Assembly: GCA_964507055.1 (NCBI GenBank) | Contig: CAZDOJ010000001.1 | Span: forward strand, 849,313-913,312 | Origin: an uncultured Gammaproteobacteria bacterium | GTDB taxonomy: Bacteria; Patescibacteriota; Microgenomatia; Levybacterales; UBA12049 | Length of the DNA stretch: 64,000 bases | Direction: 5' to 3' | Shown here: positions 12,150 through 46,021 of the stretch, one piece after another | How positions within the stretch are numbered: position 1 is the first letter of the stretch | Layout: each line of letters starts with the position of its first letter | Made by a program: the position numbers and the translations under genes | The notes under the pieces: generated by a model | What the model was told of the DNA's origin: nothing | The model's database searches: none | The model's input: the letters and a program-made list of their open reading frames with translations, nothing else

Positions 12150-12156
12150 AACTCGT

Positions 12157-12417
12157 CTATACACTAAAAAGGTACAGGGAGAGTACCACACCCAGGCAGG
12201 CAATCAAAATATATTCTATAACAAGTCGCACATGTAATTCATGATGTACATAATGATGAAGCAACGACCAGATGAAATAGCAAGTCGCTGTCATCGTAAT
12301 AATAAGTGCCTGTAACTTATTATCATGATTATTTAAAACGATAAGCGTCAAACCCAATCCAAAAATGATCAGCGTTGAACTGTAATACCAAATATGTTTG
12401 CGAAGATCTGTAATCAT
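12157..12417 (-). CDS. Small hypothetical membrane protein (2-3 TM)
   Basis: 86-aa hydrophobic ORF whose start codon shares one base with the stop of the upstream CAP gene (TAATG). Confidence 0.45.
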   Translation of the reverse strand: MITDLRKHIWYYSSTLIIFGLGLTLIVLNNHDNKLQALIITMTATCYFIWSLLHHYVHHELHVRLVIEYILIACLGVVLSLYLFSV

Positions 12418-26520: not shown

Positions 26521-28668
26521 CTACCTCATAGACGAAAGCTCACGTAAAAAGAGATTATAATCGCCACTATCCACTTTTCCATTATCATCAAGATCCGTAT
26601 TGATTGCAGGAACGTGAACTTGGCATACATTCTTGTTAAAAGGAGCATTTGGATCACTCATAGGAAGTGGATTAATTACTCCGTACCCACAATCAAGAAA
26701 AGCATTGTAGTCCATAACATTGATCAAATTGTCTCCCGTAACATCACCAGCATTCAAAATGATTTGTGATACAACATTTTCTTGATTAGATGTTATCGTA
26801 ACAGCTACATTCCTTTGCAGATATTTATCACTTTTGACATGCATAACATATGTACCAGAAGGAAAAGCACTTCCTAGATCCAATTTCCCTACAAAGTTTC
26901 CTGAAGCTGCATCATAGGTAATAGCAGCTGATTTACTGGCAACTTGGTTATTTGCACTATCAAACAGACGTACAGACAAATTCCGTTGCGGAGTTTGAGG
27001 AGACTTATTACTTAAGCTTCCTCCACCAGGATTAGAATTATCTCCTGACGACCCAACTCCGTGAAGAGCAATTGTAAATGAAAGTGTTGTAGAAGGACCT
27101 CCAGGATTTGGTGTCGTTGAAACCACCGGACTAACAGTTGGCTGTGGAGTAAAAAATGGCGTTGGAGGCGTTGCCCCAAAGTGAATAGCCACCGTTGCTT
27201 GTGTTGTAGTTGCTGTCATCGTTTGCACAGAGATCTTATGGTCTTCGTCAAAGAAAACCATACCTGGCTCCAATGCGGCATCAGCAAATGTAGTAGTTCC
27301 TGGATTTGCATCAAGAAGAACAGCATCACACTTCGATCCACCTGGGCAATCTGCTGGGGAAAGCCGGAGACTTATACCCTTAAAGACATTCGAACTAGGA
27401 CGATCTGGAATGGAAAGATACGTAAAGAAATTATCTAGCGTATCAAGACCATAAGGTTGTCGATATTCTAAATAATAGTACTGCTGAGCACCAGAAGCGG
27501 TAGTCGTACTTCTCGGTATTTTAATAAGCTGGACAGACGAAGACGATTGTTCTTGTGGAGCAAGTGTATATGTTCCTGTAGAGGTTACCTGCTGAATATT
27601 TTCAGGTGCAAACCATCCTGATAATTCTTTGTGAACATTACTGATGTGACCCAAACCGCCCCCTAATGGTTCATATGGATCACCTGCATCATCCACACAG
27701 TTATTGCTTATCGTAACTCTTCGTCCAGTGCTATCTGTACAAGAAAATGCATAAGCATGATCTAAATAGTCAACACTTGACTGGTCATTCTCAAGCGGTA
27801 ATGCATGAGCAATTTCATGGAGCAATACATGTTTGTAATTGTCTATTGGCCACGTTAGATCATACATAACGATATAATGACTTGTTGCACTTGTTAAGCC
27901 AACAAATCCTTTACATCCATTTGTCACAGGGAACATAAAAATGAACTTATCGTAGTTATTCATATCATTTCCTGCTTTTTGTGCTTCTTGTTTGGCTAAT
28001 TCTCCCCAATTTCGAACTTGCTCATTTGGACATTCTGTCGAAGGTGTTCCAATAGTAAGATCATATGGGATTGTGTACCAGCCAAAGACATCTCCATCAG
28101 GGCTTGTTTTGCCCTGCATATTATATAAACCATAAGATATTTCCTTAAAATAATTTTTGCTTGAGTCTGCATCAGTAAATATTTGCTTCTTTGCATCGGC
28201 TGGAGTTACAGGTTGAATCGTGTTATTTCTGAAATTAAACAAAATGACTGCAGTCTTAATATTTTTGGTAGTTGAGGAAGCTGTAACTTTGGACTGTGGC
28301 TCATCAATAATTTGTATAGCATTTGGAAGCTTTACGTCCACATGCAGTACGTTATTATGTTGTGTACCGACTACTTTAACTCGTGAACCTGAAGTAAGTT
28401 GTGAAGGAATCCCATTTACAAACTGCAGTCGTAAACTTCGCCTATCTAAAGTTTCTAATAGATATTCTTCTGTCGACTTTCCTGAGATTTGATCAAGAAT
28501 AAGAATTGAAACTTTCCCTTCAACGACACTTGTTGTTGATTGTGTGGACGAACGAGAGCGAATATCATTTATCTCTAAACGAAATATGCTTACAGGGAGA
28601 ATAATCAGTCCCATAAGCAAACTAAGTAAAATAAAAAAGGTCGGAGTATTGCGAAATTTTCGCATCAT
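26521..28668 (-). CDS. Secreted HExxH zinc metalloprotease with a C-terminal dockerin-like module
   Basis: Signal peptide/TM at the N-terminus, then a YKHVLLHEIAHAL zincin motif. The C-terminus has two Ca-loop-like repeats, GDVTGDNLINVMDYNAF and DLDDNGKVDSGDYNLF, that fit the dockerin pattern D-x-[DNT]-x-[DN]-G-x-[IV]-[ND]-x-x-D. Confidence 0.7.
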   Translation of the reverse strand: MMRKFRNTPTFFILLSLLMGLIILPVSIFRLEINDIRSRSSTQSTTSVVEGKVSILILDQISGKSTEEYLLETLDRRSLRLQFVNGIPSQLTSGSRVKVVGTQHNNVLHVDVKLPNAIQIIDEPQSKVTASSTTKNIKTAVILFNFRNNTIQPVTPADAKKQIFTDADSSKNYFKEISYGLYNMQGKTSPDGDVFGWYTIPYDLTIGTPSTECPNEQVRNWGELAKQEAQKAGNDMNNYDKFIFMFPVTNGCKGFVGLTSATSHYIVMYDLTWPIDNYKHVLLHEIAHALPLENDQSSVDYLDHAYAFSCTDSTGRRVTISNNCVDDAGDPYEPLGGGLGHISNVHKELSGWFAPENIQQVTSTGTYTLAPQEQSSSSVQLIKIPRSTTTASGAQQYYYLEYRQPYGLDTLDNFFTYLSIPDRPSSNVFKGISLRLSPADCPGGSKCDAVLLDANPGTTTFADAALEPGMVFFDEDHKISVQTMTATTTQATVAIHFGATPPTPFFTPQPTVSPVVSTTPNPGGPSTTLSFTIALHGVGSSGDNSNPGGGSLSNKSPQTPQRNLSVRLFDSANNQVASKSAAITYDAASGNFVGKLDLGSAFPSGTYVMHVKSDKYLQRNVAVTITSNQENVVSQIILNAGDVTGDNLINVMDYNAFLDCGYGVINPLPMSDPNAPFNKNVCQVHVPAINTDLDDNGKVDSGDYNLFLRELSSMR

Positions 28669-31176: not shown

Positions 31177-33015
31177 ATGATTAGATTAATTGGTGTTACT
31201 AAAAAAGATAAGGATATACTACTCTACTACGCCTATACAAAAAACGGTAAGAATTTCTTTAAATGTGTCGCAAGTTCCGATGGATTTGAATTTGATGGTA
31301 CGACAAAGTATGTAATAATCACAGACACCAAAGGTCGTGAGGATGCAAAGTATGATTTCAGGAACTTTAATATAACTCCACAAGGTGATAAATTTGCGGT
31401 AGCATTTAAAGCAGGTCCCAAAGCAAAAGACCTTACTTTTGCAGTCTCAGACCAACTACTCCGCTGGACCAAAATCAACAAAGAAGAAACTATTAAAGAA
31501 GCCGGAGCACTTGTACCGGATTATAAGTACAAGCACCGACACGTTCTCTACACAGGCGAACAGAGTATAAAAGTCGCCTACTCGTCTCAGCTTGAGAGTT
31601 GGAAAACAGTCGATAAGCCTGTCCTTGAAAGTCGTGCAGGCTTTTTTGATGATGGAGACCTTGAGATTGCAAAAGTCTTTATCCATGCAGAGCAAATCCT
31701 TGTGATCTACTACTCGAAGTCACAAAAAGGAAAACACACTGTCTATAAAGTCGGTGCTGCATATTTTGATCCAAAGAACCCTGAACATCTTCTTTGGAGA
31801 ACTGAGAAACCTCTTTGGGAACAACCAGCACACCAACATGCAGATCCTTTACAGCCGCTTGATGTCGAAATGACGAAAGAGTACCTCATCCTTTATTGGA
31901 CAGTAAATGATTCCAATATTTATGCAGTAACATGCCCACTTCCAGGTGGAAGTCTCAGAGAAAAGGATATTCAAATCCTTTTGAAGAAGCCTCACCAGAA
32001 TCCAATTTTGAAACCACGTCCTGATCGAGTTTGGGAATCACGAGCAGTATTTAATTCAGCAGCACTGTATGAAGATGGCAAAGTACATTTCCTGTATCGT
32101 GCATTGGGAGATAGTGATCTTTCAGTCATTGGCTATGCAACAAGTTCCGATGGACTGACCATCGATGAGCGGTCCGAAGAACCGATTTATCTTCCACGTG
32201 AACCATTTGAAACCCCTGGCGGACAAGCATTCAAATCATTTGCAGATCACTTCGCATCCGGTGGAGGATATGGTGGAATCGAAGACCCACGTGTCACCAA
32301 AGTTGATGATACAGTCTTTATGACATATGTTGCATTTGATGGATGGAGTCCCCCACGAGCAGCTCTAACATCAATTCCTCTTGAGGATTTTCTCGCAAAG
32401 AATTGGAGCAAATGGAAAAAACCGCAACTCATTTCCCCTCCAGGGATGGTCAACAAGAGTGCAGTTATCTTCCCAGAAAAAATCAATGGAAAATATGTCG
32501 TTATCCATAGAGTGTATCCAAACATTCTGATTGATGTTCTTGATGATTTGAACTTCGATGATAAATATCTTACTGGTCATCATTTCATTCCACCTCGAAA
32601 GGGTCATTGGGACAGTAAAAAGATTGGTGCTGGTGCTCCTCCGATGTTAACGAAAGATGGGTGGCTCCTCATTTACCAATCTGTTGGATACCAAGATCCA
32701 GGTCGATATAAGATCGGTGCTATGGTTTTGGATAAAGACGATCCAACAAAGGTTCTGTATCGAACGAATAATCCAATTGTCTCACCAGACATGCCATATG
32801 ATAATGAAGGTTTTAAAGCAGGCGTTGTCTATCCTTGCGGTGCAGTTATCAAAGATGACAATCTCTTTGTCTATTATGGTGGAGCAGATACAATCGTGGC
32901 AGCCGCTACCGCAAACGTCGATGACTTCCTCGATAAGATGAAGAATCACAAAGAACCAAAGATGAGAAAAGTTAAAGCACCTGTGCTACACTCTAATCAC
33001 ACAGCACATGTGTAA
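31177..33015 (+). CDS. Two-module GH130 (DUF377) glycoside phosphorylase/hydrolase family protein
   Basis: The C-terminal module is an unmistakable GH130 match (GIEDPRV...YVAFDG...FPEKINGKY...DDPTKVLYRT...VYYGGADT). The N-terminal about 270 aa form a divergent second module (LLYYAYTKNG...ASSDGFEF). Confidence 0.75.
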   Translation: MIRLIGVTKKDKDILLYYAYTKNGKNFFKCVASSDGFEFDGTTKYVIITDTKGREDAKYDFRNFNITPQGDKFAVAFKAGPKAKDLTFAVSDQLLRWTKINKEETIKEAGALVPDYKYKHRHVLYTGEQSIKVAYSSQLESWKTVDKPVLESRAGFFDDGDLEIAKVFIHAEQILVIYYSKSQKGKHTVYKVGAAYFDPKNPEHLLWRTEKPLWEQPAHQHADPLQPLDVEMTKEYLILYWTVNDSNIYAVTCPLPGGSLREKDIQILLKKPHQNPILKPRPDRVWESRAVFNSAALYEDGKVHFLYRALGDSDLSVIGYATSSDGLTIDERSEEPIYLPREPFETPGGQAFKSFADHFASGGGYGGIEDPRVTKVDDTVFMTYVAFDGWSPPRAALTSIPLEDFLAKNWSKWKKPQLISPPGMVNKSAVIFPEKINGKYVVIHRVYPNILIDVLDDLNFDDKYLTGHHFIPPRKGHWDSKKIGAGAPPMLTKDGWLLIYQSVGYQDPGRYKIGAMVLDKDDPTKVLYRTNNPIVSPDMPYDNEGFKAGVVYPCGAVIKDDNLFVYYGGADTIVAAATANVDDFLDKMKNHKEPKMRKVKAPVLHSNHTAHV

Positions 33016-33035
33016 AGTAGAAATTCGGGTACAGT

Positions 33036-34985
33036 ATGATAAAACTACAACGCTCTTCAAATAATCCAATCCTCAGCCCTGATCCAAAAAATCCTTGGGA
33101 ACACGATGGAGCGTTCAATGGATGTGTCGCCTATCATGAGGGGACTTATCATATGGTTTACCGTGCTTTATCTTCAGAGAAAAGACAAAACGGTGTCAAC
33201 CTGCGTGTATCCACAGTTGGTTATGCTACAAGTACTGATGGAGTAACTTTTGGAGAACATAGAATGCTCTTTGAACCAACAGAAGATTGGGAAATATATG
33301 GAGTCGAGGATCCACGTATTACATTCCATAACGGCAAATTCTATATATTCTACACAGCACTTTCAGTCTATCCATTTGCAGCCTATGGTATTAAAACCGC
33401 TGTCGCTATTACAACTGATTTTAAGACATTTGAGAAACATCCAGTTAGTACATTCAATGCAAAAGCTCAGGCACTTTTCCCCGAAAAGATTAATGGAAAA
33501 CTTGCGTCCCTCATTACAATAAATACAGATATGCCACCGGCAAAAATATGTGTCGCGACATTTGATAATGAAGCAGATATTTGGTCACCTTATTATTGGC
33601 AGGAATGGTATGACAATGTAAATCAACATTCGCTGCATTTATTGCGTGATCTTCGTGATCAAATAGAACTTGGTGCACCACCAATCAAAACACCAGATGG
33701 ATGGTTTGTCATCTATTCATATATAGGGAATTATCTTTCAAACAATAAGAATTTTGGTATTGAAGCTGTACTTTTGGATTTGGATGATCCGAGGAAAGTT
33801 ATTGCGAGAACTGAGCATTCACTTCTTGATCCTGAAGCGGAGTATGAATTGCATGGAGATGTGCCAAACATTGTTTTTCCTTCGGGTGCACTTGTGAAAG
33901 ATGATGAACTCTTCGTTTATTATGGAGCGGCAGATACACGAGTTGGACTCGCTTCGGCAAAGATCGCTGATATCATAGCTGAAATGAAACCGGCAGAGTC
34001 TGTACCAAATCTTGCACTTTCCGCAGAAGCAAAACAAGCAAATGCCAAACAACCGAAATTCCAACGCTTTGAAGGAAATCCCATTATCAAACCAGCACTT
34101 GAATCAGAATGGCAGGCTTTTGGGACATTTAATCCTGCTGTAGTTTATGAGAAAAACAAATTCCATATCGTCTATAGAGCACAAGCCGTCAAAGGAACGT
34201 CTGTCATGGGATATGCCGTGAGCAGTGATGGCTTCACAATAGATGAGAATTTAGATGAACCAATTTATTTTCCACGTGAATCATTTGAACAAAAGATTCA
34301 TGAAACCGGCAACTCAGGATGTGAAGACCCAAGACTTTCCCGAATTGATGACAAGTATTACATGCTTTATACAGCATATGACGGCGTCAATCCTCCTCGT
34401 GTCGCGATGACTTCAATACCGGTTGAGGACTTTCTTAATCGCAAATGGAATTGGTCACCAGCACAACTCATCTCTCCACCCGAAGTTGATGATAAAGATG
34501 CATGCATAGTGAAAGGTAAGGCTGCTGGAACGTACTTAGCATTCCATCGACTTGGATATGATATTTGGTTGGATATCAGAAAAGATCTTATCTTTAATGA
34601 ATCTAATTGGCTCAAAGGTGAAGTGATAGCACATCCAAGAGCAGATCATTGGGATAATGTGAAGTTGGGTATTAGTGCTCCACCAATTGAAACAGAAAAA
34701 GGTTGGTTATTACTGTATCATGGGGTTTCAGAACCAGGAAATGTTTATAAAGTTGGTGCGATGCTTTTGGACTATGATGATCCAAGAAAGGTTCTTGCTA
34801 GAACCGATGAACCAGTCTTTGAACCCGAAACAGAATACGAAAAAGTCGGAGTCGTTCCAAATGTAGTCTTCCCTTGCGGTGCAGTTGATGTAAACGGAAC
34901 TATCTTTATGTACTATGGCGGTGCTGATGAAGTAATTGGAGTTGCTACTATGAAGGTAAACGATCTACTGAATCTTCTTAAATAA
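33036..34985 (+). CDS. Two-module GH130 (beta-mannoside phosphorylase family) protein
   Basis: Two complete GH130 modules, each with YRA...GYA.S.DG, EDPR, LFPEKINGK, PIKT..GW, LDxDDPRKV and YYGxADT strings. These align with the EDPR, PIKT..GW, LDDP and YYxxxDT strings of a Bacteroides fragilis GH130 enzyme as I recall it. Confidence 0.8.
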   Translation: MIKLQRSSNNPILSPDPKNPWEHDGAFNGCVAYHEGTYHMVYRALSSEKRQNGVNLRVSTVGYATSTDGVTFGEHRMLFEPTEDWEIYGVEDPRITFHNGKFYIFYTALSVYPFAAYGIKTAVAITTDFKTFEKHPVSTFNAKAQALFPEKINGKLASLITINTDMPPAKICVATFDNEADIWSPYYWQEWYDNVNQHSLHLLRDLRDQIELGAPPIKTPDGWFVIYSYIGNYLSNNKNFGIEAVLLDLDDPRKVIARTEHSLLDPEAEYELHGDVPNIVFPSGALVKDDELFVYYGAADTRVGLASAKIADIIAEMKPAESVPNLALSAEAKQANAKQPKFQRFEGNPIIKPALESEWQAFGTFNPAVVYEKNKFHIVYRAQAVKGTSVMGYAVSSDGFTIDENLDEPIYFPRESFEQKIHETGNSGCEDPRLSRIDDKYYMLYTAYDGVNPPRVAMTSIPVEDFLNRKWNWSPAQLISPPEVDDKDACIVKGKAAGTYLAFHRLGYDIWLDIRKDLIFNESNWLKGEVIAHPRADHWDNVKLGISAPPIETEKGWLLLYHGVSEPGNVYKVGAMLLDYDDPRKVLARTDEPVFEPETEYEKVGVVPNVVFPCGAVDVNGTIFMYYGGADEVIGVATMKVNDLLNLLK

Positions 34986-34986
34986 A

Positions 34987-36657
34987 TTACAATTCGTAGT
35001 GCTCGTATGATTTCGTAATTACAGGTAAATATGTCTTTTCAAAATAATCCCGCAGCATACGCGTCGCACTAAATTGGTGCAGAATAAGTTCACGACCATC
35101 CCGTTGCATCATATGCCACTTTGTTTGGTCCTGATCGTAATAAGTTGGAATAACTTGTTGCTCGAGTATATCGAGAAGACTTGTTTGGATAGTATCACTA
35201 TCAAAAGACCATCCAATCCTGTTCACGTCAATTTCATCCATCCATCCATCTTTGGTGCTTAATGGTAAAACTCCATTGAGACTCGCTTTCATACCACTTG
35301 TCCCACATGCTTCTGAACCGACGACTGGAGTATTGAGCCAAACGTCTGATCCGCTGATCATTAATTTTGCCAATGTTTTATTGTAGTCTGCCAAATAAAC
35401 CACGCTTCCTTTTAACTCATTGTCGAGCATCTTTTGCAAAGTATTAATAAGCTCTCGCCCTTCATCATCTGCCTGATGAGAGATACCAGCCATTACAATG
35501 CGTACAGGTCGATCTGCATTTTTTGCAATTGAAACAAACCGCTCCAGATCTCCATATAAAGCTAGCGGTCTCTTATAACGAACCATTCTTCTTGCCCAAC
35601 CCAAAAGTAATTCATTTTCATCCCAATGCTGGCCAGTTTCTTTTGCAATATAACTAAGCAAAGCTTTTTTACTCGTGTCATGATATGCCATACTTTCCCA
35701 ACTTGGTGTATGAATGCCGTTTGTAACTGGTTCCCATACAAAATCCGGCCAAAACTTGCTTGCTTCTTTGACGTGCAACTTACTCACTCCGTTGATTTTT
35801 CCTGCCAATCGCATTGCAAAGACTGCAAGGTAAAAATCATGTGAATCCTCAATCGTTCCTAAATCGGAAATCTTTGTGACAGGAATTTCTAGTTGACTAG
35901 CATACTTACCAAGCATCATATGAATCAACTCATTACTAAAGATATCGTTGCCAGCTGGAACTAATGTATGATTGGTAAAAACCACATGATGGGAAGCCAT
36001 TTTTGATGCCTCTTCAAAAGAGATGTTTCGCTTCTGCATCTCATGTCTTATGATTTCCAAGACAAGTAAAGCGGAGTGACCTTCATTCATGTGATAAAGT
36101 GAAGGTTGTACACCAAGTGATTCAAGTAATCGAAATCCACCAATTCCCAAAATCATTTCTTGTTTGAGTCGAACTTGCTTATCCGCGTCATACAGTTTGT
36201 AACCAATTGCACGGTCTTCAGGAGAATTCTCAGGAACATTGGTATCAAGTAAGTACAGTGGAATAGAATTATTTTGCCAAACCCAACATCGGACAAACAC
36301 ATCATGGTCTCCTACTGGAACTGCTATTATGAGCGGCTTTTGGTCTTTCTTATCTAAAACAGGTTGTAAGCCTTGATTTTCAGGTGTTGGGATAATATGC
36401 TCACTATCCTTATCATGATGTGGGTCAAAACCATATCGACTTTGATAATATAAACCTACAGAAACAGCAGGAATATGCCTATCTGCAAGTTCTTTGATAA
36501 AGTCCCCTGCAAGAATCCCAAGCCCACCTGCATACGTTGGAAGCTTATCTGAGAGAGCATATTCAATACTAAAATACGCTAGGGGTTTTTTCTGCAAAAG
36601 TTGATAGGGCTTAGTTGTTCGAAATTCTTCAAACCAAATTTCGTGTTCATTAACCAT
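34987..36657 (-). CDS. glgP: Alpha-glucan phosphorylase (GT35, short maltodextrin/glycogen phosphorylase type)
   Basis: LPTYAGGLGILAGDF, NEGHSAL, and about 555 aa, typical of the compact GT35 subfamily. Confidence 0.85.
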   Translation of the reverse strand: MVNEHEIWFEEFRTTKPYQLLQKKPLAYFSIEYALSDKLPTYAGGLGILAGDFIKELADRHIPAVSVGLYYQSRYGFDPHHDKDSEHIIPTPENQGLQPVLDKKDQKPLIIAVPVGDHDVFVRCWVWQNNSIPLYLLDTNVPENSPEDRAIGYKLYDADKQVRLKQEMILGIGGFRLLESLGVQPSLYHMNEGHSALLVLEIIRHEMQKRNISFEEASKMASHHVVFTNHTLVPAGNDIFSNELIHMMLGKYASQLEIPVTKISDLGTIEDSHDFYLAVFAMRLAGKINGVSKLHVKEASKFWPDFVWEPVTNGIHTPSWESMAYHDTSKKALLSYIAKETGQHWDENELLLGWARRMVRYKRPLALYGDLERFVSIAKNADRPVRIVMAGISHQADDEGRELINTLQKMLDNELKGSVVYLADYNKTLAKLMISGSDVWLNTPVVGSEACGTSGMKASLNGVLPLSTKDGWMDEIDVNRIGWSFDSDTIQTSLLDILEQQVIPTYYDQDQTKWHMMQRDGRELILHQFSATRMLRDYFEKTYLPVITKSYEHYEL

Positions 36658-36666
36658 TACTTTATT

Positions 36667-38226
36667 TTAAGCTAATTGCTCCGGAGATGCTACTGTCGCG
36701 ATTGTTTCTTTTCTTTTTGCAGCGACCCTTTTATACCAGCTGTCGTATTGTGTCGCAGCATGGCTCCATGAAAAATCACTTTCAAGACAATTTTTAACAA
36801 GCATTTTCCATAATTTCGGATGATTATAGATAATCAATGACTGCATGATCGTACCATATAAAGACCATGCGTCTTTATTTTTGAAAGAGAACCCATTCCC
36901 TTCTTTTGTTGCAGGATTATAATCAGTGATAATATCACTTAATCCCCCTGTTCTTCGTATAATTGGGACACAACCGTATCGTAATGCTTCTAAAGCAATG
37001 ATACCGCCTGGTTCAAAAAGGCTAGGAATAAGCATCATGTCAGCACCTGCGAATATCTTCTTTGGTAATCGGAAATCTGGACGCAAATGCAAACCTACTT
37101 GTTCAGGAAATGTCTTTTGTAAGACTGTTAATTCCAAACGATAGCGTTCTTCTCCACTTCCAAGAAAAACAATTTGTACATCAGGTCGTTCACTCAATAA
37201 ATGAGGTAACGCTTCAAGTACCATATCTAATCCTTTTTGTTTTACCATTCGTCCACTTAACGCAAGCAGCGGTCGATGAAAATCCGGTGTAAGACCGAAA
37301 AGCTTTTGTAGTTCTCTTTTATTTTCTTCTCGTGCATGGACAAAAGAATTGGCATTAAAGTTTTTCTTAATAGACTTATCTGTATGTGGATTAAATTTTT
37401 CTGTATCTAGTCCATTAAGAATTCCTGTCAACCGTCCTCGTACTTCTTGTAAAATTTCATCTAAACCTTCAGCGTATTCAGGAGTCATAACTTCGACTGC
37501 ATGTGTTGGACTAACAGTATTGATAGCATCAGCATTCAACAAACCTCTTTTTAATGGATTTTGTAACTGAAGTACTGGATTTGTCAGAGCAGCAGGTAAC
37601 GGTTTACCTGTATCGAATTCTTCTTTCGGCGAATAACGAAAATCATAGTTACCTTGAAGAGAAAAATTATGAACTGTATAGACAATTGGTGTTTTACGGA
37701 AGATATCTTTATATCGAGGATGTCGGCGAGCTAAATCAAGGAAATAGCCTGTATGCCAATCGTGAGCATGAATAATATCAGGCTTCCACCCATCATTCAT
37801 GCCTGAGTTTGTTGAAAGCTTAACTTGTTGCTGCATCATCCATTCAAGACATGCTTTGGATAAAAGTGCAAAGCGAGTGTGATCATCTTTATATCCATAC
37901 ACATTTGCACGGAGTTCGTAATATTCTTTATTCTCAAGAAAGTATGCATGGATTTTAGAATTTTTATCTCGATATGATTTTACATTACAAATAATTGGTC
38001 GATCTTCTATGTCCATATCCTCAGGCACTTTCAGATCAGTATATTCCATTTGTAATTTCCAATTGCCTTCGATTGTTGTTTCATCCATCGCACCATATTT
38101 CGGAGTAAAAATGCGGACATCATGTCCTAATTTGCGGAGCTCCTTAGGGAGAAAATACATGAATTGACTCAACCCCCCAACTGAAACAAAAGGAGCAACT
38201 TCAGCAGCAAGTAAGAGGATATTCAT
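36667..38226 (-). CDS. glgA: Glycogen/starch synthase (GT5)
   Basis: MNILLLAAEVAPFVSVGGL (KxGGL-like), a GT-B fold C-terminus, and 519 aa. Confidence 0.8.
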   Translation of the reverse strand: MNILLLAAEVAPFVSVGGLSQFMYFLPKELRKLGHDVRIFTPKYGAMDETTIEGNWKLQMEYTDLKVPEDMDIEDRPIICNVKSYRDKNSKIHAYFLENKEYYELRANVYGYKDDHTRFALLSKACLEWMMQQQVKLSTNSGMNDGWKPDIIHAHDWHTGYFLDLARRHPRYKDIFRKTPIVYTVHNFSLQGNYDFRYSPKEEFDTGKPLPAALTNPVLQLQNPLKRGLLNADAINTVSPTHAVEVMTPEYAEGLDEILQEVRGRLTGILNGLDTEKFNPHTDKSIKKNFNANSFVHAREENKRELQKLFGLTPDFHRPLLALSGRMVKQKGLDMVLEALPHLLSERPDVQIVFLGSGEERYRLELTVLQKTFPEQVGLHLRPDFRLPKKIFAGADMMLIPSLFEPGGIIALEALRYGCVPIIRRTGGLSDIITDYNPATKEGNGFSFKNKDAWSLYGTIMQSLIIYNHPKLWKMLVKNCLESDFSWSHAATQYDSWYKRVAAKRKETIATVASPEQLA

Positions 38227-38293
38227 GCCTATATGATACCATAAAAATGAAACTTAAGCGATAAGCAGACTGTGAAGACAATCTAAACTACCG

Positions 38294-38860
38294 TTATAGA
38301 GGCTTTCTTTTAAGCTTTAACAAATAGCCAAGAAATGTTGCGGTCGGGTGAATAATAATCCACATAAAGATAATCAGTAAATACTGATACCACTCCAATG
38401 GAATGTAAAAGAAAGTAAATACAATACCACCCAATATAAAATCAATTTGATCAAAAGGAACCCAACTTCGTCCAGGTTGAATATTCTGTCTCCTTTTGAA
38501 GAAACTTTTCACCGCATCTCCAGCTAACGCTCCAAATCCAAGAAGAAAACCCAATAGAATCGGATTTACTTCGTTATAATTTATGGGCAGGAAATCACGC
38601 TGCCAACTGATTGTGTTGTAAAAGAAAATTTGTAAGTAGACGCCAATAATTGCTACAATTGTTCCAAGTAAAAAGCCACGAATTGTTTTATGACTTCCAA
38701 GAATTCTTTTTCCTTGGAATTTTAATCCAAAATCTACAGGATAATTATATGGTCGCAAAAACTTAATTTTTCCAGAACCAAACGCCACGACATTTGCGAG
38801 TCCTGCGGGTCCAAAAAACCAAAATGCAAAGAAGAATTCTTTAAGAAGCTGTTCAACCAT
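38294..38860 (-). CDS. CarS-like membrane CTP:lipid cytidylyltransferase (CDP-archaeol synthase family, DUF46)
   Basis: 188 aa with about 5 TM helices. GSHKTIRGFLLG (G..KT.RG) and AGDAVKSFFKRR...GRSWVPFDQIDFILGG match the CarS signature (GD..SF.KRR...FDQ.D). It is translationally coupled (8-nt overlap) to the upstream PHP gene. Confidence 0.65.
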   Translation of the reverse strand: MVEQLLKEFFFAFWFFGPAGLANVVAFGSGKIKFLRPYNYPVDFGLKFQGKRILGSHKTIRGFLLGTIVAIIGVYLQIFFYNTISWQRDFLPINYNEVNPILLGFLLGFGALAGDAVKSFFKRRQNIQPGRSWVPFDQIDFILGGIVFTFFYIPLEWYQYLLIIFMWIIIHPTATFLGYLLKLKRKPL

Positions 38861-39521
38861 TTGTTAATATTATCTTATTTTTAATACGATTTACCAATGG
38901 GCAAAGTAACGTATACATTGGTGCTCTCTTGCGGGAAAGCTCAGGGTTAATCAAAAGTCGTTTCAAAGATTTTTGTGTCGGCATTTCAGCGACAATACTA
39001 TATGTTTTTCCCATTCCCATAATACAATGAGAATCACTACTAGCTGCCTGAGATTTTTGATGCAGATTGGCAAATGCTAATGATTCTTCTGGCTTTCCTC
39101 TGACCTGCCCTCGTCCGTTAAAGACTTCTACAATATCTATTTCATCTTTTATCTTATCAAGACTTGATTGCTGTAACCCTTTTCTAAATATTTCATATGG
39201 ATGCGGTATATAGACAAGTGCATCCTGTTGTCTGATTCGGTTAACAGTCTCTACTGCATCTAATCCAGCGGGTATTGTTTCTTGCAAAAACAATCCTATG
39301 ATTTCTCCCTCCGTCGTTGTGATCTCTTCACCGATAATGATCTTATCACCATGTTTTTGTTGCATAATTCGAGCAAAACTAGTTTCATTATGATCTGTTA
39401 TAGCAATGCAATCGAGTCGTTCGGAAGAAAGTAATTTCTCATATTCCTCTGCAGTAATACCTCCATCATGTGATATGATTGAGTGAGAATGTAGATCAAC
39501 TTTATACTGTGTTTTATCCAT
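38853..39521 (-). CDS. PHP-domain metal-dependent phosphoesterase
   Basis: VDLHSHSIISHDG at the N-terminus (PHP motif I), ITDHNE, and HPYE. 222 aa. Confidence 0.75.
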   Translation of the reverse strand: MDKTQYKVDLHSHSIISHDGGITAEEYEKLLSSERLDCIAITDHNETSFARIMQQKHGDKIIIGEEITTTEGEIIGLFLQETIPAGLDAVETVNRIRQQDALVYIPHPYEIFRKGLQQSSLDKIKDEIDIVEVFNGRGQVRGKPEESLAFANLHQKSQAASSDSHCIMGMGKTYSIVAEMPTQKSLKRLLINPELSRKRAPMYTLLCPLVNRIKNKIILTNG

Positions 39522-40107
39522 GCTAAGTCAAAGTAAACAATCAGTCGAAAAAGTCCTCGAGCCACTAATTGAACCATTATCAAAGGTTAACCCAAACGTG
39601 CTTACTCTCTTAGGTAGTATACCACCTCTGGTATTCTTTGTCGCTATTATTAACCATATATATTGGCTGGCAATAGTTGCTTTCATTGGAAATCTCTTTG
39701 ATCTTCTCGATGGTATGGTTGCTAGAAAATATAAAAAAGTGACAGCATTTGGAGGCTTTTTGGATTCCACACTTGATCGAGTTGGAGATTTTCTGATCAT
39801 TACTTCATTTTCATTTGCAGGAATCGTTCGTTGGGAATTAACTATTCCATTACTACTTTTTGCATTCCTCACAAGTTATATTAGAAGTCGTGGAGAATTA
39901 GCAAAACCATCAGTAAGTTTTGCAGTAGGAATTGTTGAGAGAACAGAGCGTTTGATTGTTGTTGTTCTGGCATTAATCCTTCACATGATCTTTCCAGATT
40001 ACTCATTTTCAGGACTTAATGTGATGGAAGTAAGCTTTTTATTCTTAGCAATTTTATCCTTTTACACAGTTTTGCAGAGAATTATGTATGCCTACCGAAA
40101 ATTATAA
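39520..40107 (+). CDS. CDP-alcohol phosphatidyltransferase (archaetidyl/phosphatidyl-inositol-phosphate synthase-like)
   Basis: Complete D-x2-D-G-x2-A-R-x8-G-x3-D-x3-D signature (DLLDGMVARKYKKVTAFGGFLDSTLDRVGD). 195 aa with 5-6 TM helices. It is convergent with MIPS. Confidence 0.85.
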   Translation: MLSQSKQSVEKVLEPLIEPLSKVNPNVLTLLGSIPPLVFFVAIINHIYWLAIVAFIGNLFDLLDGMVARKYKKVTAFGGFLDSTLDRVGDFLIITSFSFAGIVRWELTIPLLLFAFLTSYIRSRGELAKPSVSFAVGIVERTERLIVVVLALILHMIFPDYSFSGLNVMEVSFLFLAILSFYTVLQRIMYAYRKL

Positions 40108-40143
40108 ATACTATTTCAACTTCACGCCTATTGAAGTCTGACA

Positions 40144-41238
40144 CTAATCAATCTTGTACTTTTTGATAAACTCTTCAACTTTTTCTCGTGCTATTGAATC
40201 TGTATATTGTTTGGGTGGAGACTTCATGAAATATGATGATGGCTCAACCAAAGGACCTCCTACATTATTGTCTAAAGCAAGTTTACAACATCTGATTGCA
40301 TCAATTACAACTCCCGCTGAATTTGGTGAGTCCTCCACAGAAAGACGTGCTTCAATATGCATTGGCACATCTCCAAAATGACGACTTTCAATCCGTATAA
40401 ATGCCACTTTATTATCTTTCATCCATTCAACGTAATCACTTGGGCCTATGTGTACATTTTCAGGAAGAATCGAGTCATCATGTAAATCAATTTGAGAAGT
40501 GACAGATTGTGTTTTGGATATTTCTTTGGACTTTAGTCTTTTTCTTTCGAGCATGTTTTGAAAGTCAGTATTGCCGCCAACATTTAATTGATACGTTCTA
40601 TCAATTGGCATCCCTCGATCTAAGAATAAATTAGTTAAAACTCTGTGAACAATTGTCGCTCCAACTTGTGCTTTTATATCATCACCAACAATTGGTACAT
40701 TTGCTTCTGTAAATTTTTTGCTCCATTTTTTGTCTGTTGCTATAAATACAGGCATACAATTAACCATTCCTACTTTTGCACGTAAGCAAATATCAGCCCA
40801 ATACTCTACTGCTTTTTGACTACCTACAGGAAGATAATTCACAAGGATTTCAGCACCAGAATCTTTTAAGATTTTTACTGGATCTGGAATTTTATTCTTG
40901 GAAACTTTGATAACATCTTTGACATACTCACCAATTCCATCCATTACCTCAGCATTTTTAACAGTAACACCTAGTTTTTGAACATTCGCGAAAATCGCGG
41001 TATTATTTGGATGTGCATAAATTGCCTCTCCCAAATCTTTTCCAACTTTTGTTTCATTGACATCGAAGGCAGCAACAACTTCAATATCACTAATAGTGTA
41101 GCCACCAAAATTCGTATGCATCAAACCAAATATCCGGTCATCTTCCTTAGCATTTTTATAATAAGTTAGTCCTTGAATAAGTGAAGATGCACAGTTGCCA
41201 ATGCCTACAACCGCAATTTTTATTTTTTTATTCCTCAT
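40144..41238 (-). CDS. ino1: myo-Inositol-1-phosphate synthase (inositol-3-phosphate synthase, short prokaryotic form)
   Basis: IKIAVVGIGNCASSLIQG NAD-binding N-terminus, 364 aa, matching compact archaeal/bacterial MIPS. Confidence 0.85.
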   Translation of the reverse strand: MRNKKIKIAVVGIGNCASSLIQGLTYYKNAKEDDRIFGLMHTNFGGYTISDIEVVAAFDVNETKVGKDLGEAIYAHPNNTAIFANVQKLGVTVKNAEVMDGIGEYVKDVIKVSKNKIPDPVKILKDSGAEILVNYLPVGSQKAVEYWADICLRAKVGMVNCMPVFIATDKKWSKKFTEANVPIVGDDIKAQVGATIVHRVLTNLFLDRGMPIDRTYQLNVGGNTDFQNMLERKRLKSKEISKTQSVTSQIDLHDDSILPENVHIGPSDYVEWMKDNKVAFIRIESRHFGDVPMHIEARLSVEDSPNSAGVVIDAIRCCKLALDNNVGGPLVEPSSYFMKSPPKQYTDSIAREKVEEFIKKYKID

Positions 41239-41308
41239 AAGATCTAAAGATACCAGATGAGTTGATAGTTGTAAAATTAATGATTCTTATGTTATATTAA
41301 TAAAATTA

Positions 41309-42157
41309 ATGATAGAAGAATTACACAGATTTATACTATTGGTTGAGAAGCGAAATGTAACGAAGGTCGCAGATAAGGTTTTTATCACACAGTCTGCAAT
41401 GTCTCAATCAATCAAACGACTTGAGAAAGAACTTGGAGTAAAGTTAGTCATTCAGAAAGGTAAGCAGTTAGATATTACGAGTGATGGTATGGCAGTTGCA
41501 GAACTCGGGACAAAAATCCTTCAACTCTGGGAACGTGCAAAAGATCCTCAAAAGCGTATAGGCGAAAAACAAATAATATCTCTTGGCCTTTTTGATAATG
41601 CAGCACTTAAATTAGGTGAGTATTTTCAAGATTCAATTATAAAAAATGATTTCAAAATAGAGCTAACGATTAATGCATCAGGAAAAATTTTCTCACAGCT
41701 TATGCTTGGCATATATGATCTTGCAATCTGTGTCGTAGATAATAAAAATTCCCTTCCGAAAACAGTACATCATATAAAAAGCTTCACCGAAGAATTGATT
41801 CCTGTTTCATCAAAAAAATTTAAGGGTAAGCTTGAAGATATCCCATTTATTTTATATAACATTGGTTCACATACAAGAGAACATATTGATGAGATATTTG
41901 AAAAAAATCAAATCAAGCCAAATGTCTTTGCAGAATCAACGAGTACTACTTTTATGAAAGAACTTGCTCTTCTTGGAAGCGGTATCGCTTTATTACCAAA
42001 GAATTCTGTTTCTGCTGAATTGTCACAAGGACTTCTAAAAAAATACTCTTTGCCTTTTAAGTTTTATCGCGAATATGGTCTTTATATTTCGACACAAAGT
42101 CTACTTCAAAAGGACCATCAGATTATTAAGGATATAAGTAAGATATTGGGGAAATAG
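41309..42157 (+). CDS. LysR-family transcriptional regulator
   Basis: N-terminal wHTH (VTKVADKVFITQSAMSQSIKRLEKELGVKL) plus a C-terminal substrate-binding domain. It is divergent from ino1 across a 70-bp intergenic region. Confidence 0.8.
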   Translation: MIEELHRFILLVEKRNVTKVADKVFITQSAMSQSIKRLEKELGVKLVIQKGKQLDITSDGMAVAELGTKILQLWERAKDPQKRIGEKQIISLGLFDNAALKLGEYFQDSIIKNDFKIELTINASGKIFSQLMLGIYDLAICVVDNKNSLPKTVHHIKSFTEELIPVSSKKFKGKLEDIPFILYNIGSHTREHIDEIFEKNQIKPNVFAESTSTTFMKELALLGSGIALLPKNSVSAELSQGLLKKYSLPFKFYREYGLYISTQSLLQKDHQIIKDISKILGK

Positions 42158-42904
42158 TTATTTCGTTTTTCCTAAGCCTTTCATTGCTTCAAGGACTTCG
42201 ATTGGGACAGCAAAAACAACTGTATTGGATTGATCGGAAGATATGTCATTGATTGAATTTAATGTTCTCAAATGCAATGCTCCAGGTGCATTAGCCATAA
42301 GTTTTGCGGCTTTTGAGAGATTTTCTGCGGCAACAACTTCTCCCTCAGAATTAATAATAGTAGCTCGTCTTTCTCGCTCTGCTTCAGCTTGTTTTGCCAT
42401 TGTTCTTTTCATGGTTTCTGGCAAAACGATATCTTTTAATTCAACAGTGAGAACTTCAAGTCCCCATTGTGTCGTTGTTTCTCGAACAATATCCTTAATT
42501 CTCGTTGCTACCTTATCACGATTTGTAAGTAAGGAATCGAGGTCAATTTCACCAATAACATTTCGCATAGTAGTTTGTGCCAATTGATGAACTGCCACAT
42601 AAAAATTCTCTACTTCAAGAACTGCTTTCGATGCATCTGTTACTTTGTAATAAATAACTGCGGAGATACTCGCAGAGATATTATCTTTGGTAATTGCTTC
42701 TTGATTTGGGACATCTACAGCTTTTGTACGGATATCAATTTTTTGATATGACTGCACAATCGGAAGCACAATTCTCCATCCAGGTTCCATAACACCTGTA
42801 TATTTCCCAAATGAGAATTTTACACCGCGTTGATATTGATTAATTTGTTTAATCGAAATAAGTAGAATAAAAAGAATCGGCAAAATGATTATTGCAAGTT
42901 CCAT
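42158..42904 (-). CDS. SPFH/band-7 (stomatin/prohibitin-like) membrane protein
   Basis: N-terminal TM, then band-7 core (QRGVKFSFGKY...VLEVENF...) and a C-terminal coiled coil (AKQAEAERERRA). Confidence 0.85.
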   Translation of the reverse strand: MELAIIILPILFILLISIKQINQYQRGVKFSFGKYTGVMEPGWRIVLPIVQSYQKIDIRTKAVDVPNQEAITKDNISASISAVIYYKVTDASKAVLEVENFYVAVHQLAQTTMRNVIGEIDLDSLLTNRDKVATRIKDIVRETTTQWGLEVLTVELKDIVLPETMKRTMAKQAEAERERRATIINSEGEVVAAENLSKAAKLMANAPGALHLRTLNSINDISSDQSNTVVFAVPIEVLEAMKGLGKTK

Positions 42905-43146
42905 TGAAGTTATTGTATACCCGGGAGAGAGCTATTGCAAGCTTTATCTATGAAATATGTGCCTATACATCTCTTCAACAAATCTTACAATACTATATAG
43001 ACAATAACGAGTCTTGGGTATATAATTCTTTTTTATGCTAAGATTTTGCTCATTCATTGCCACACAGGGAAAACACTTAACTCCTTAAATCGCACGTATT
43101 AATACGAATATTTACTTGCAGGAATAACCTGACCACTATTATCGTT

Positions 43147-44337
43147 ATGCAAACTCAAATAATTACAAATCATATAAATCAATTTGCTTCAAATGCCCCA
43201 ACTGTTGTTGTATCTGCAACAGGTAAAGAAAGGCTTGTTTGGACAGAAATCGATTTGAAGAAATTTAGAGACAATTATCTAAATATCAAAAAGTTTGTGC
43301 AACCTGATGTAAAAATTATGGGAGTTCTTAAAGCCAATGCATATGGACATGGAATCAAGCATATTGGCCATGAATTAGAGAAATTAGGTGCAAATTACCT
43401 TGCAGTTGCATGTATTTATGAAGGAAAGCAATTAAGAGACGCTGGTATTACTTTGCCTATTCTTCTTCTTGGATATACGGATCCACACAGCGTTGCTTTA
43501 GCACTTGATTACAATTTAACTATAAGCGTCAAAGATGAAGATGTATTGAAAGAAATTGCGGAACAGGCGGAAAAAAAGAATATCACTGCAAATATTCACG
43601 TAAATGTTGATACTGGTATGCATTTTTATGGGGTTACTCCTGACAAGGCTATTCCTCTTATTATTAATACACAGTCGTACAAACATGTTTTCTTGGAGGG
43701 TATCTTTAGTCATTTTGCTGATGCAGAAGCAGAAGATTTAACATATGCATATCAACAGGTCGCTGCATTTGAATATATTCTTGATGAAGTTAAGAAATAT
43801 GGGATAACTCCTCCTTTAATTCATATGGCAAATGGGGCTGCGATAGTAAGAATGCCGAAAGCTCACTTCACAATGGTCCGACCTGGGACATTTTTATATG
43901 GCCCGCAAACCGGTGAGCAAATTCCAGGATACACGCCCGAACAAGTTTTATCTTTTAAAACTGTAATTACACATATAAGAAAACTAAACGAAGGCGAAAG
44001 TGTAGGATATGGACAATCTTTCATTGCCAATAAGGAATCTGTCATTGCTTCAATACCCGTGGGCTATGCAGATGGCTTCCACAGAAACACGGAATACTTC
44101 GGATATGTTTTAGTACATGGGAAAAAAGCTCCAGTTATTATTAAACCAGCAATGGATCAGACCGCAATTGATATCACAGGAATCCAAGATGTAAAAGTGG
44201 GAGATGAAGTTGTATTAATAGGAGAACAAGGCAAATCAGAAATAACTCTCAATGAAGTTGCTGAACATATGCATACCGCAAATTACGCAATTTTATCGGG
44301 TATTACAGAACGTGTATCAAGAAAGTACAAGGGGTAA
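43147..44337 (+). CDS. alr: Alanine racemase
   Basis: VLKANAYGHG PLP-lysine motif, WTEIDL, and a C-terminal beta-domain; 396 aa. Confidence 0.85.
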   Translation: MQTQIITNHINQFASNAPTVVVSATGKERLVWTEIDLKKFRDNYLNIKKFVQPDVKIMGVLKANAYGHGIKHIGHELEKLGANYLAVACIYEGKQLRDAGITLPILLLGYTDPHSVALALDYNLTISVKDEDVLKEIAEQAEKKNITANIHVNVDTGMHFYGVTPDKAIPLIINTQSYKHVFLEGIFSHFADAEAEDLTYAYQQVAAFEYILDEVKKYGITPPLIHMANGAAIVRMPKAHFTMVRPGTFLYGPQTGEQIPGYTPEQVLSFKTVITHIRKLNEGESVGYGQSFIANKESVIASIPVGYADGFHRNTEYFGYVLVHGKKAPVIIKPAMDQTAIDITGIQDVKVGDEVVLIGEQGKSEITLNEVAEHMHTANYAILSGITERVSRKYKG

Positions 44338-44341
44338 TTTT

Positions 44342-45922
44342 ATGCAAAAAAACATACATGCACATACAATAAGTACCAAAGTAATTACATCTCAAGGACT
44401 GAAAGTTTCTGATAAGACATTTGCAAAACTGAGAGATAAAGCATTTGCACGAAGACCTATGCTTCGCCATATTCTTGATATTTATGGTGATATGACATTG
44501 CTCGAATTTGCTAGAATTTATAATAGAACTAACGAAAAGTACATCCCAGAAAAACGGAAAGAAGAATTTATTGCGACATTTACAAATGAAGTCGAACGAC
44601 TACTAGGAAAAGATGTTGCCAGAACATGTCAGAAACAACTAGATGCTATATACAGAGTTATAACAACAGACCATCATGGCCCTATCAGCGAACCTGGAAT
44701 GGTAAACGGTAATATCCATAAAGCAATGCCATATTTATCAGGTGATGATCTGGTCAAAAATATTATTGTCCTAGGATGTGCAAATGTTTCTTTTGATAAT
44801 GAATCATTTCCCCGTGGCCTACTCTTCCATTCTAATCAAGATACTCAGACATTGTTAAATCAAATTGTATTTTATCCACGTGCCGTTCGACCATGTCCTG
44901 TTATTTATTATCCAGCGTATACAACTGAGAATCTTGAAAATGCGAAAAAAAGAATTATCACATGGGTACAAGAGAAGACAATAACTGAAACGCAAAAAGA
45001 AGAATTAAATCAACTTCTCTCAGATATTTATGCACACCCATCTGTCCTTTCTAGTACATTCTTTTCAGAACAGATTACAAGGACAAATTATATGTTGTGG
45101 AAGCGGATCATGAAAGAGCAGCCAAAAGCCCCAAACCTCATTTATATTGAACAAGAAAATATTGTAAATCAGCTTATTCTTAATTATCACTTAGACAATA
45201 AGACTTTGGTCAATAAATTATTATTTACTCCAAAATACCATAAATTGATAGAAAAATATTTTGACGGTATTCTTTGCGGCTTTTCAACAAAAGATAAAAC
45301 TGGCACATACCTATTTTGGGCATTACCAAAAGGACAAAAGTATCGCGTACAATTATGGAAAAAAGGAAATAAACTCCAAACTGAAGATGGACAGTACCAG
45401 ATAGAACTTACACCAGATGGTATTCGAAACGCGATTTTGAATAAAGAACTTATTCCAAGTACACTCATGTCATTTATTCTTCTCGCTTTCTATTATGGAG
45501 TGAGGCTCATTGGTGGATCCAATCAAACAACGTACCTTACCCAAATGAAGGAGGCATTTATGAACATGCAAAAAGAATATGGCGATATGGAAAGTTATGC
45601 ATTTGCTGAAGACGTTGTGACAACAGACCTTTCTATTGCTATAGAAAGTTTATCATTTGTCCAGACGCCAAGCGATAATAAAGTTCCAGCAACAGGTATT
45701 GATTTAGTATTGTACGGAAATAAATCAACTGTTCGGATTATGAGACAAATCGCCAGTGTGTTAACAGTAAAAGAAACTTTTTTTAGATCGCTTCCAGATT
45801 GCTATCGTTGGTATTACAAAGAAGCAGAACGTGATCCAAAACTTTCTCAAATTACCAAAGAAGATATGGAAAAATACTTAGGAATAGAACACAAAATAGT
45901 CGCTTCAGCTACAATAAGCTAA
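44342..45922 (+). CDS. Hypothetical protein (about 526 aa, soluble), translationally coupled to alr
   Basis: I trimmed the start to ATG 44342 (MQKNIHAHTIS...) with AAGGGG 8 nt upstream. The track start 44252 would overlap alr by 86 nt. No recognisable family or nucleotide-binding motif by eye. Confidence 0.55.
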   Translation: MQKNIHAHTISTKVITSQGLKVSDKTFAKLRDKAFARRPMLRHILDIYGDMTLLEFARIYNRTNEKYIPEKRKEEFIATFTNEVERLLGKDVARTCQKQLDAIYRVITTDHHGPISEPGMVNGNIHKAMPYLSGDDLVKNIIVLGCANVSFDNESFPRGLLFHSNQDTQTLLNQIVFYPRAVRPCPVIYYPAYTTENLENAKKRIITWVQEKTITETQKEELNQLLSDIYAHPSVLSSTFFSEQITRTNYMLWKRIMKEQPKAPNLIYIEQENIVNQLILNYHLDNKTLVNKLLFTPKYHKLIEKYFDGILCGFSTKDKTGTYLFWALPKGQKYRVQLWKKGNKLQTEDGQYQIELTPDGIRNAILNKELIPSTLMSFILLAFYYGVRLIGGSNQTTYLTQMKEAFMNMQKEYGDMESYAFAEDVVTTDLSIAIESLSFVQTPSDNKVPATGIDLVLYGNKSTVRIMRQIASVLTVKETFFRSLPDCYRWYYKEAERDPKLSQITKEDMEKYLGIEHKIVASATIS

Positions 45923-46021
45923 TAAGTATTGTATCTGCTACAATAACTAAACAAATGTCTATACTCCCTCAGATAGATATTCGTACAATATTTTTTCTAA
46001 CCAACTACTACGGTACATTCT

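Follow-up and report, generated by a model that had tools for sequence, protein, structure and literature searches.

Five neighbouring genes in a 64,000-nt stretch of contig CAZDOJ010000001.1 (the window, whose numbering we use unless another locus is named) encode the parts of a candidate phospholipid head-group module: a cytidylyltransferase of the CarS family, a PHP-family phosphoesterase, a CDP-alcohol phosphatidyltransferase (CAPT), a myo-inositol-1-phosphate synthase (MIPS) and a LysR-type regulator (Table 1). An initial annotation of this DNA had placed the five open reading frames (ORFs) at exactly the same coordinates, and the families it gave them were borne out by Pfam and NCBIfam profile searches. 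The window has a G+C content of about 37% and holds no tRNA genes. The nearest homologues of the CarS-like and PHP proteins were found in Candidatus Levybacteria/Levyibacteriota and other Patescibacteria, and the sister genome OZ246394.1 is syntenic with the window.

Table 1. Genes of the head-group module and the start codons shared by two of them, with positions in the window.
Feature	Position	Strand	Remarks
CarS-family CTP:lipid-phosphate cytidylyltransferase	38294-38860	(-)	188 aa, five predicted transmembrane helices
PHP-family metal-dependent phosphoesterase	38853-39521	(-)	222 aa; translationally coupled to the CarS-like gene
CATG shared by the start codons of PHP (-) and CAPT (+)	39519-39522		2-nt overlap, read directly
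CDP-alcohol phosphatidyltransferase (CAPT), AIPS/PIPS type	39520-40107	(+)	195 aa; divergent from PHP
myo-inositol-1-phosphate (inositol-3-phosphate) synthase, MIPS	40144-41238	(-)	364 aa; PF01658
LysR-type regulator	41309-42157	(+)	HTH_1 and LysR_substrate domains; divergent from MIPS

The genes are tightly packed. The stop of the PHP gene overlaps the start of the CarS-like gene by 8 nt (ATGGTTGA), in agreement with the translational coupling claimed for this pair. The start codons of PHP and CAPT overlap as well, hence the promoter of each must sit within the other gene, and the same 2-nt overlap is present at the related locus L009. The N-terminal part of the CAPT is conserved, and its match to the AIPS model starts at position 2; automatic gene callers trim the protein to 169 aa (L084) or 130 aa (L001). 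A promoter and terminator scan of positions 36500-42300 returned counts equal to the shuffled expectation, so no statement can be made on the transcription units.

The CarS-like protein scored 91.4 bits with PF01864 (cut-off 22) over residues 10-185, while PF01148, the CdsA family, gave a partial match of 26 bits over residues 57-127. Its sole match among the PDB sequences was CarS of Aeropyrum pernix (ApCarS, 5GUF; E 2.6e-11), and no CdsA structure was matched there at E up to 1. The AlphaFold (AF2) model, with a pLDDT of 84.5, has five long helices, as expected from the five transmembrane segments proposed earlier, and a fold search of this model against the PDB again returned 5GUF as the sole significant match (E 8.9e-05, TM-scores 0.63/0.73). 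When aligned to 5GUF, the protein keeps the polar motifs G-x-x-K-T, G-D-x3-S-F-x-K-R-R and D-Q-x-D of ApCarS, and the residues K58, T59, G110, G114, D115, S119, K122, R123, D137, Q138 and D140 are invariant in the homologues and common to ApCarS. It has neither a full-length PF01148 match nor the CdsA signature motif, and its 188 aa and five helices do not place it with CdsA either. The PF01864 score and the sequence and fold matches to 5GUF thus uphold the assignment to the CarS family rather than to CdsA. Database annotations already name relatives of this protein 'CDP-archaeol synthase'.

The CAPT matched PF01066 with 65 bits, and the catalytic motif D61-x2-D64-G65-x2-A68-R69-x8-G78-x3-D82-x3-D86 is complete, as had been read from the sequence at the outset; its residues are invariant or nearly so in 59 CAPT neighbours of CarS-like genes. 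On the NCBIfam models the protein scored 151.5 bits for AIPS and 110.1 for PIPS, compared with 33.1 for PgsA and 23.9 for Pss, and the best PDB relatives were the phosphatidylinositol phosphate (PIP) synthases 5D91/5D92, 6H53 and 6WM5. A model of the BT_1523 type gave 50.5 bits against a cut-off of 350. In the PIP synthase of Mycobacterium tuberculosis (MtPIPS), R155 and R195 bind the phosphate of the inositol phosphate and are absent from eukaryotic phosphatidylinositol (PI) synthases, and S132 and K135 line the inositol-phosphate pocket (Clarke et al., PMC4634129). These four residues align with R144, R187, S119 and R122 of the CAPT. Among the type-1 CAPT neighbours of CarS-like genes they are kept in 39/40 (R144), 40/40 (R187), 40/40 (S119) and 38/40 (R122) proteins, and the equivalents of R144 and R187 are found in 18/19 and 19/19 of the type-2 neighbours. 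This second CAPT type occurs in Saccharibacteria, where it is co-directional; it retains the arginine pair and has its best scores, 95-107 bits, on the AIPS/PIPS models. The model scores and the arginine pair both group the CAPT with AIPS/PIPS and not with PgsA/Pss, as had been proposed. As the pair is kept, the acceptor should be inositol phosphate and not free inositol, and the product would then carry a terminal phosphate that needs to be removed.

Synthesis of di-myo-inositol phosphate (DIP) likewise calls for MIPS, a CAPT and a phosphatase, and the DIPPS model does find the CAPT, weakly, with 40 bits. It might hence be asked whether the product of the cluster is a soluble osmolyte of the inositol phosphodiester kind, for instance DIP or glycerophosphoinositol, instead of a lipid. 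We regard this as extremely improbable: no soluble IPCT nucleotidyltransferase domain is encoded in the cluster, the cytidylyltransferase has the CarS fold and is integral to the membrane, the CAPT lies nearer to the PIPS structures (E 4.6e-12) than to IPCT/DIPPS (E 7.8e-05), and the genome is of a low-GC, mesophile-like kind. The osmolyte reading was rejected on the domain content and the linkage to the CAPT.

The MIPS gene product matched PF01658 with 121.6 bits and Ino1 of M. tuberculosis (1GR0) with E 1.1e-126 over residues 5-358. It is Mycobacterium-like and is predicted to supply the head-group precursor from glucose-6-phosphate. Family domains and strands confirmed both this gene and the divergent LysR gene. 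The two are also adjacent in the Levybacteria-like loci L004, L007, L009, L016, L017, L021, L022, L030 and L079, and the LysR protein is the probable regulator of MIPS.

Related loci were collected by a scan of one genome per species, which gave at least 507 genomes with a CarS-like relative. For the best 80 loci ORFs were called and searched with the window proteins; nearly all of these loci belong to the Candidate Phyla Radiation (CPR), with Levy-, Roizman-, Dojka-, Doudna-, Staskawicz-, Parcu- and Saccharibacteria represented, and two to Woesearchaeota. Linkage was counted in the 64 loci whose sequence extends 2.7 kb or more upstream of the CarS-like gene. An AIPS/PIPS-like CAPT was present in 57/64 and PHP in 48/64, the two occurred together in 46/64, and MIPS lay within 6 kb in 11/64. 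An ORF with the CAPT motif was found no more than 3.2 kb from the CarS-like gene in 55/60 loci. The linkage of the module is thus conserved across Patescibacteria. The module exists as first described, but it is not peculiar to this genome, being widespread in the CPR and with counterparts in DPANN archaea. Several records of metagenome-assembled genomes with a CPR-type module (L004, L016, L017, L021 and others) are titled 'uncultured Gammaproteobacteria bacterium' and one is titled Muribaculaceae; these titles look like mislabels, as the gene content and nearest relatives are those of Patescibacteria.

A lipid kinase of the YegS/DgkB type, about 300 aa long, lies between PHP and CarS in 17 of the 64 loci (TIGR00147 98.8 bits; PF00781 and YegS_C); the genes there run PHP - lipid kinase - CarS, and the CAPT is divergent. 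Elsewhere the neighbour of the CarS-like gene is a true PgsA (L018; 130 bits, cut-off 109), a Pcs-like enzyme (L067) or Pss/Psd enzymes. When 1.84 billion cluster representatives were searched exhaustively, 1644 CarS-like relatives were found, 816 of them at E up to 1e-10. Some of the relatives are fusion proteins, with CarS either before or after a CAPT domain (P0404, P0411 and P0479) or joined to PAP2 (PAP2-CarS, P0489). The fusions and the varied CAPT neighbours point to the CarS-like enzyme as a supplier of CDP-activated donor for many CAPT types, like CdsA, and in this lineage it appears to fill the role that CdsA has in other bacteria. In four loci without PHP and the YegS-type kinase, the CarS-like gene adjoins a member of an uncharacterised family of about 310-340 aa with the motif W-V-[MV]-K-E-G-[RK]-W-D (L018 7067-8011, L040 2262-3194, L056 4192-5214 and L067 8517-9449). 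This family has no Pfam or PDB match and may be another partner of the module.

The CTP-transferase superfamily includes lipid kinases of the dolichol/phytol kinase type, and the weak PF01148 match would also fit a CarS-like protein that acts as a CTP-dependent kinase on polyprenol. We find this highly improbable in view of the specific CarS family and fold match, the near-obligate linkage or fusion with CAPTs, which need a CDP-activated donor, and the separate lipid kinase that the operon of the relatives already holds. Here too the domain content and the CAPT linkage led us to reject the reading.

The phosphoesterase has the (beta/alpha)7-barrel PHP fold with the conserved His, Asp and Glu metal ligands, and it found no match to the PgpA family, to which the PIP phosphatase BT_1525 belongs, in Pfam or NCBIfam. 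With a PHP fold and without PgpA homology it can at most 'work like' a PIP phosphatase. From the gene context we suggest it as a candidate lipid-inositol-phosphate (PIP) phosphatase. The CAPTs found next to PHP give products with a terminal phosphate, namely PIPS-like CAPTs in the CPR and a PgsA-like domain in the archaeal locus L091; no PHP gene was seen at the Pcs-like locus L067 or at L088 and L090, which are Pss-only. Where PHP is missing, its slot is taken by an HAD protein matching the mitochondrial phosphatidylglycerophosphate (PGP) phosphatase family in L061 and by a PAP2 protein in L070. A phosphomonoesterase role is suggested because a PIPS-type product needs dephosphorylation and because these HAD and PAP2 phosphatases fill the same slot. 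A C-terminal helix (residues 202-220) was considered as an amphipathic membrane anchor of the PHP protein and rejected, its hydrophobic moment of 0.34-0.40 being unremarkable.

A salvage route would follow the gene order of the 17 loci with a kinase (PHP - lipid kinase - CarS), and this order would suit a PHP protein that works as a phospholipase-C-like phosphodiesterase, stripping old head groups so that the remaining lipid feeds the lipid kinase and then CarS; a role on nucleotides or pyrophosphate might be considered as well. The remainder of the pathway would stay as we propose it. Solved PHP folds do include phosphodiesterases and nucleases (RNase AM, EndoQ), and some loci with a PIPS-like CAPT are without PHP. 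The selective pairing of PHP with CAPTs of terminal-phosphate products and the monoesterase families that replace it at L061 and L070 speak against such a role, and we think it unlikely.

The CPR bacteria reportedly lack the ability to make membrane lipids, and the route by which they take up or remodel lipids is described as unidentified (PMC7242380, PMC11665869). We consider it probable that the cluster is a phospholipid head-group module of a Levybacteria-like Patescibacterium that turns scavenged lipid into PI, a reading built on the families, intact motifs, linkage and fusions observed above. MIPS, controlled by the divergent LysR protein, would convert glucose-6-phosphate to inositol-1-phosphate. 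The CarS-like enzyme would use CTP and a membrane lipid phosphate to form a CDP-lipid, its substrate most likely being diacyl phosphatidic acid from scavenged host lipid, which in the relatives would be supplied by the YegS/DgkB-type lipid kinase of the operon. The CAPT would then join CDP-lipid and inositol-1-phosphate to PIP, and the cytoplasmic PHP protein would take the terminal phosphate off PIP to give PI. The substrate of CarS, the reaction of PHP and the product are what we infer from the genes and their surroundings; for CarS, it is the gene context that argues for a bacterial-type diacyl lipid. The earlier claim that every step to an inositol phospholipid is encoded here holds for the head-group steps, but was overstated since the source of phosphatidic acid lies outside the cluster.

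Several points weigh against this reading. The CarS-like protein, with 125.3 bits, stays under the cut-off of 148 of the NCBIfam CarS equivalog NF003114 and is hence a diverged member of the family rather than a clear iso-functional copy. The CAPT likewise stays under the equivalog cut-offs (180 for AIPS and 170 for PIPS), and MIPS scores 485 bits on TIGR03450, an actinobacterial mycothiol-type equivalog with a cut-off of 638. The nearest solved structures of the PHP protein are uncharacterised proteins, RNase AM, PsfC and EndoQ, from which no substrate can be inferred, and only 46 of the 57 loci with a PIPS-like CAPT keep PHP. We know of no biochemical data for any bacterial CarS homologue and of no PHP enzyme that acts on a lipid head group. 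No lipid kinase was found in the window, unlike in the operons of the relatives. It was correctly noted at the outset that the window holds no CdsA: there was no PF01148 match among its multi-transmembrane ORFs, and no CdsA signature in the window or in about 1.2 Mb of related loci. As an argument this carries no weight, as the window is only a part of a genome of about 1.3 Mb and the absence of CdsA from that genome is unproven. Finally, CarS of Archaeoglobus fulgidus prefers digeranylgeranylglyceryl phosphate (DGGGP) over phosphatidic acid and does not complement E. coli cdsA (PMC9385802). The CarS-like enzymes of the CPR have either shifted in specificity or handle an isoprenoid lipid, and this is the main uncertainty.

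The second of these options would have the module work on archaeal-type isoprenoid ether lipids or mixed core lipids, obtained from an archaeal partner or self-made, with archaetidic acid or DGGGP being activated and archaetidylinositol as the product. The preference of the characterised CarS for DGGGP would fit this, as would the CarS family itself and the higher score of the CAPT on the AIPS than on the PIPS model (151.5 against 110), and methanogenic archaea are the hosts of some Patescibacteria (PMC10936435, PMC12281837). Further, the closest named relatives of the enzyme are CarS proteins of DPANN archaea (42-50% identity), and for the Woesearchaeota CarS the named relatives are all DPANN. 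In a rough neighbour-joining tree, which has no support values and a single non-DPANN archaeal sequence and so shows closeness but not the direction of transfer, the DPANN sequences nest among those of the CPR, far from the crenarchaeal ApCarS, and they are as near to the CPR proteins as to one another. On the other hand, the CPR partners of CarS include a PgsA above its cut-off, a Pcs-like enzyme and DgkB/YegS-type kinases, MIPS is Mycobacterium-like, and cultivated Saccharibacteria with the same type of module grow on Actinobacteria (PMC10633639). Neither a PcrB/GGGPS nor a UbiA-type DGGGPS, the synthases of geranylgeranylglyceryl phosphate and DGGGP, was found among the part of the window ORFs that was scanned. 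We therefore judge an archaeal-type lipid to be unlikely as the substrate.

The DPANN archaea have head-group clusters of their own around CarS. The gene orders are YegS-type kinase - DUF212 - Psd - Pss - CarS in L088, Psd - Pss - DUF212 - CarS in L090, and PgsA-like CAPT - CarS in L089. In the Nanoarchaeota locus L091 a PHP homologue (26% identity, E 1e-16) is followed by CarS, Psd and a fused PgsA-like/Pss CAPT, and in L082 a weak PHP-like ORF (profile E 4.6e-05) stands between a CAPT and CarS. As in the CPR module, CarS lies beside one or more CAPTs, and a PHP homologue (L091, weakly L082) or a YegS-type kinase (L088) is shared. The clusters differ from the CPR module in their head groups, which are for the most part serine/ethanolamine and glycerol (Pss, Psd, PgsA-like), in having no MIPS gene next to them, and in the DUF212/PAP2-like phosphatase often found in place of PHP. 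It is tempting to see in CarS, kinase, CAPT and PHP a 'head-group exchange' salvage that spans both domains in the CPR and DPANN, in which CarS would accept the core lipid of the partner and PHP would be a phosphatase of the PIP/PGP type; we offer this tentatively and rather doubt it. If true, CPR CarS would use diacyl phosphatidate, or even archaeal diether lipid, and would breach the 'lipid divide' rule that separates CarS from CdsA.

The general idea of PI from scavenged lipid is not new for the CPR, as synthesis of PI and of PI-mannosides out of scavenged phosphatidate was already predicted for a saccharibacterium in 2018 (PMC6031116). A full-text literature search, covering open-access papers and preprints only, found none that links CarS homologues of bacteria or the CPR, PHP and inositol lipids, and the CarS-type synthase, the PHP partner, the operon and the DPANN parallel were not found described in that literature. 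If the proposed pathway is true, a conserved operon that re-activates scavenged lipid and gives it a new head group would be a concrete answer to how the CPR build their membranes. CarS is regarded as archaeal and as discriminating against bacterial phosphatidate (PMC9385802); the hundreds of bacterial genomes with a CarS-type enzyme near bacterial-type head-group enzymes offer natural variants in which the determinants of specificity may be sought. The PHP-family candidate is a fresh lead, for archaea too, on the phosphatase that finishes PI, of which the PgpA-family enzyme of Bacteroides is the one known case among prokaryotes (PMC9246714). Three questions are thus made testable: the building of CPR membranes, the specificity of CarS and CdsA, and the missing PIP phosphatase. 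In Actinobacteria inositol lipids anchor surface glycoconjugates, and an inositol lipid product may matter for the interaction between epibiont and host.

Directly downstream of the CarS-like gene lie genes for a glycogen synthase (36667-38226) and an alpha-glucan phosphorylase (34987-36657), followed by two GH130 mannoside-phosphorylase genes (31177-33015 and 33036-34985, the latter with two GH130 repeats). In many Levybacteria loci this whole block (31177-38226) keeps its synteny with the module, and a tie to the supply of glucose-6-phosphate or to mannosylated inositol lipids is possible. Farther away, sugar-nucleotide genes follow one another in positions 1-12203 together with four GT2 glycosyltransferases and a GT2-GtrA/DPMS-type enzyme at 631-1812 that could mannosylate a lipid carrier, and a 715-aa ORF at 26521-28668 has no Pfam match. 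On the other side of the module the region between the Band7 gene and RecQ is variable (window 42905-46021, sister genome L001 1848-5918). In the window this stretch holds an alanine racemase and a 556-aa ORF (44252-45922) without Pfam or PDB match; in L001 it holds an acetyltransferase, a class-V aminotransferase, a 272-aa CAPT and an IPCT-like NTP_transferase, and this cassette looks like a second CDP-alcohol-type head-group pathway.

Among the known systems, the two-step PI pathway of Actinobacteria (Ino1/MIPS, CdsA, PgsA1 as PIP synthase, and a phosphatase) follows the same logic, with CDP-lipid and inositol-1-phosphate giving PIP and then PI. The window MIPS is very like the M. tuberculosis Ino1 of that pathway, and the CAPT has its fold family in common with MtPIPS and RsPIPS, as well as the catalytic motif, the Ser, the Lys/Arg position and the arginine pair. 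The differences are that the CDP-lipid synthase of the window belongs to the CarS family with its five transmembrane helices and not to CdsA, that PHP stands in the position of the phosphatase, that the genes are all clustered, and that fatty acid synthesis is not expected in this organism. The phosphatase of the PI pathway has been described as unidentified (PMC4634129; 2022 review PMC9385802), while Heaver et al. identified the PgpA-family PIP phosphatase BT_1525 in Bacteroides (PMC9246714). The cluster BT_1522-BT_1526 of Bacteroides thetaiotaomicron (PMC9246714) likewise brings MIPS, PIP synthase and PIP phosphatase together and passes through PIP; its phosphatase is of the PgpA family where the window has a PHP fold, it includes no CDP-lipid synthase gene, and the window has no sphingolipid branch.

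The archaeal archaetidylinositol pathway (CarS, AIP synthase and a phosphatase) shares the pairing of CarS with an AIPS-like CAPT. It differs in that the host here is bacterial, the neighbours in the relatives are of bacterial type (PgsA, Pcs-like, DgkB/YegS kinase), the CarS and AIPS equivalog cut-offs are not reached, and GGGPS/DGGGPS were not seen among the window ORFs scanned. The IPCT/DIPPS system and the proposed 'alternative' CDP-inositol route of Bacteroides have in common with the module a MIPS-derived inositol phosphate and an enzyme of the CAPT family. The window cluster is without the nucleotidyltransferase-fold IPCT, the sole NTP_transferase-like ORF of the window (7594-8334) lying in the sugar-nucleotide/glycosyltransferase region; a cassette of the IPCT type (NTP_transferase, 272-aa CAPT and aminotransferase) is found in the sister genome L001 and not in the window. 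We suggest that the module keeps the logic of the known PI pathway, with two enzymes exchanged for members of unrelated or distantly related families: CarS in place of CdsA and PHP in place of a PgpA-type phosphatase.

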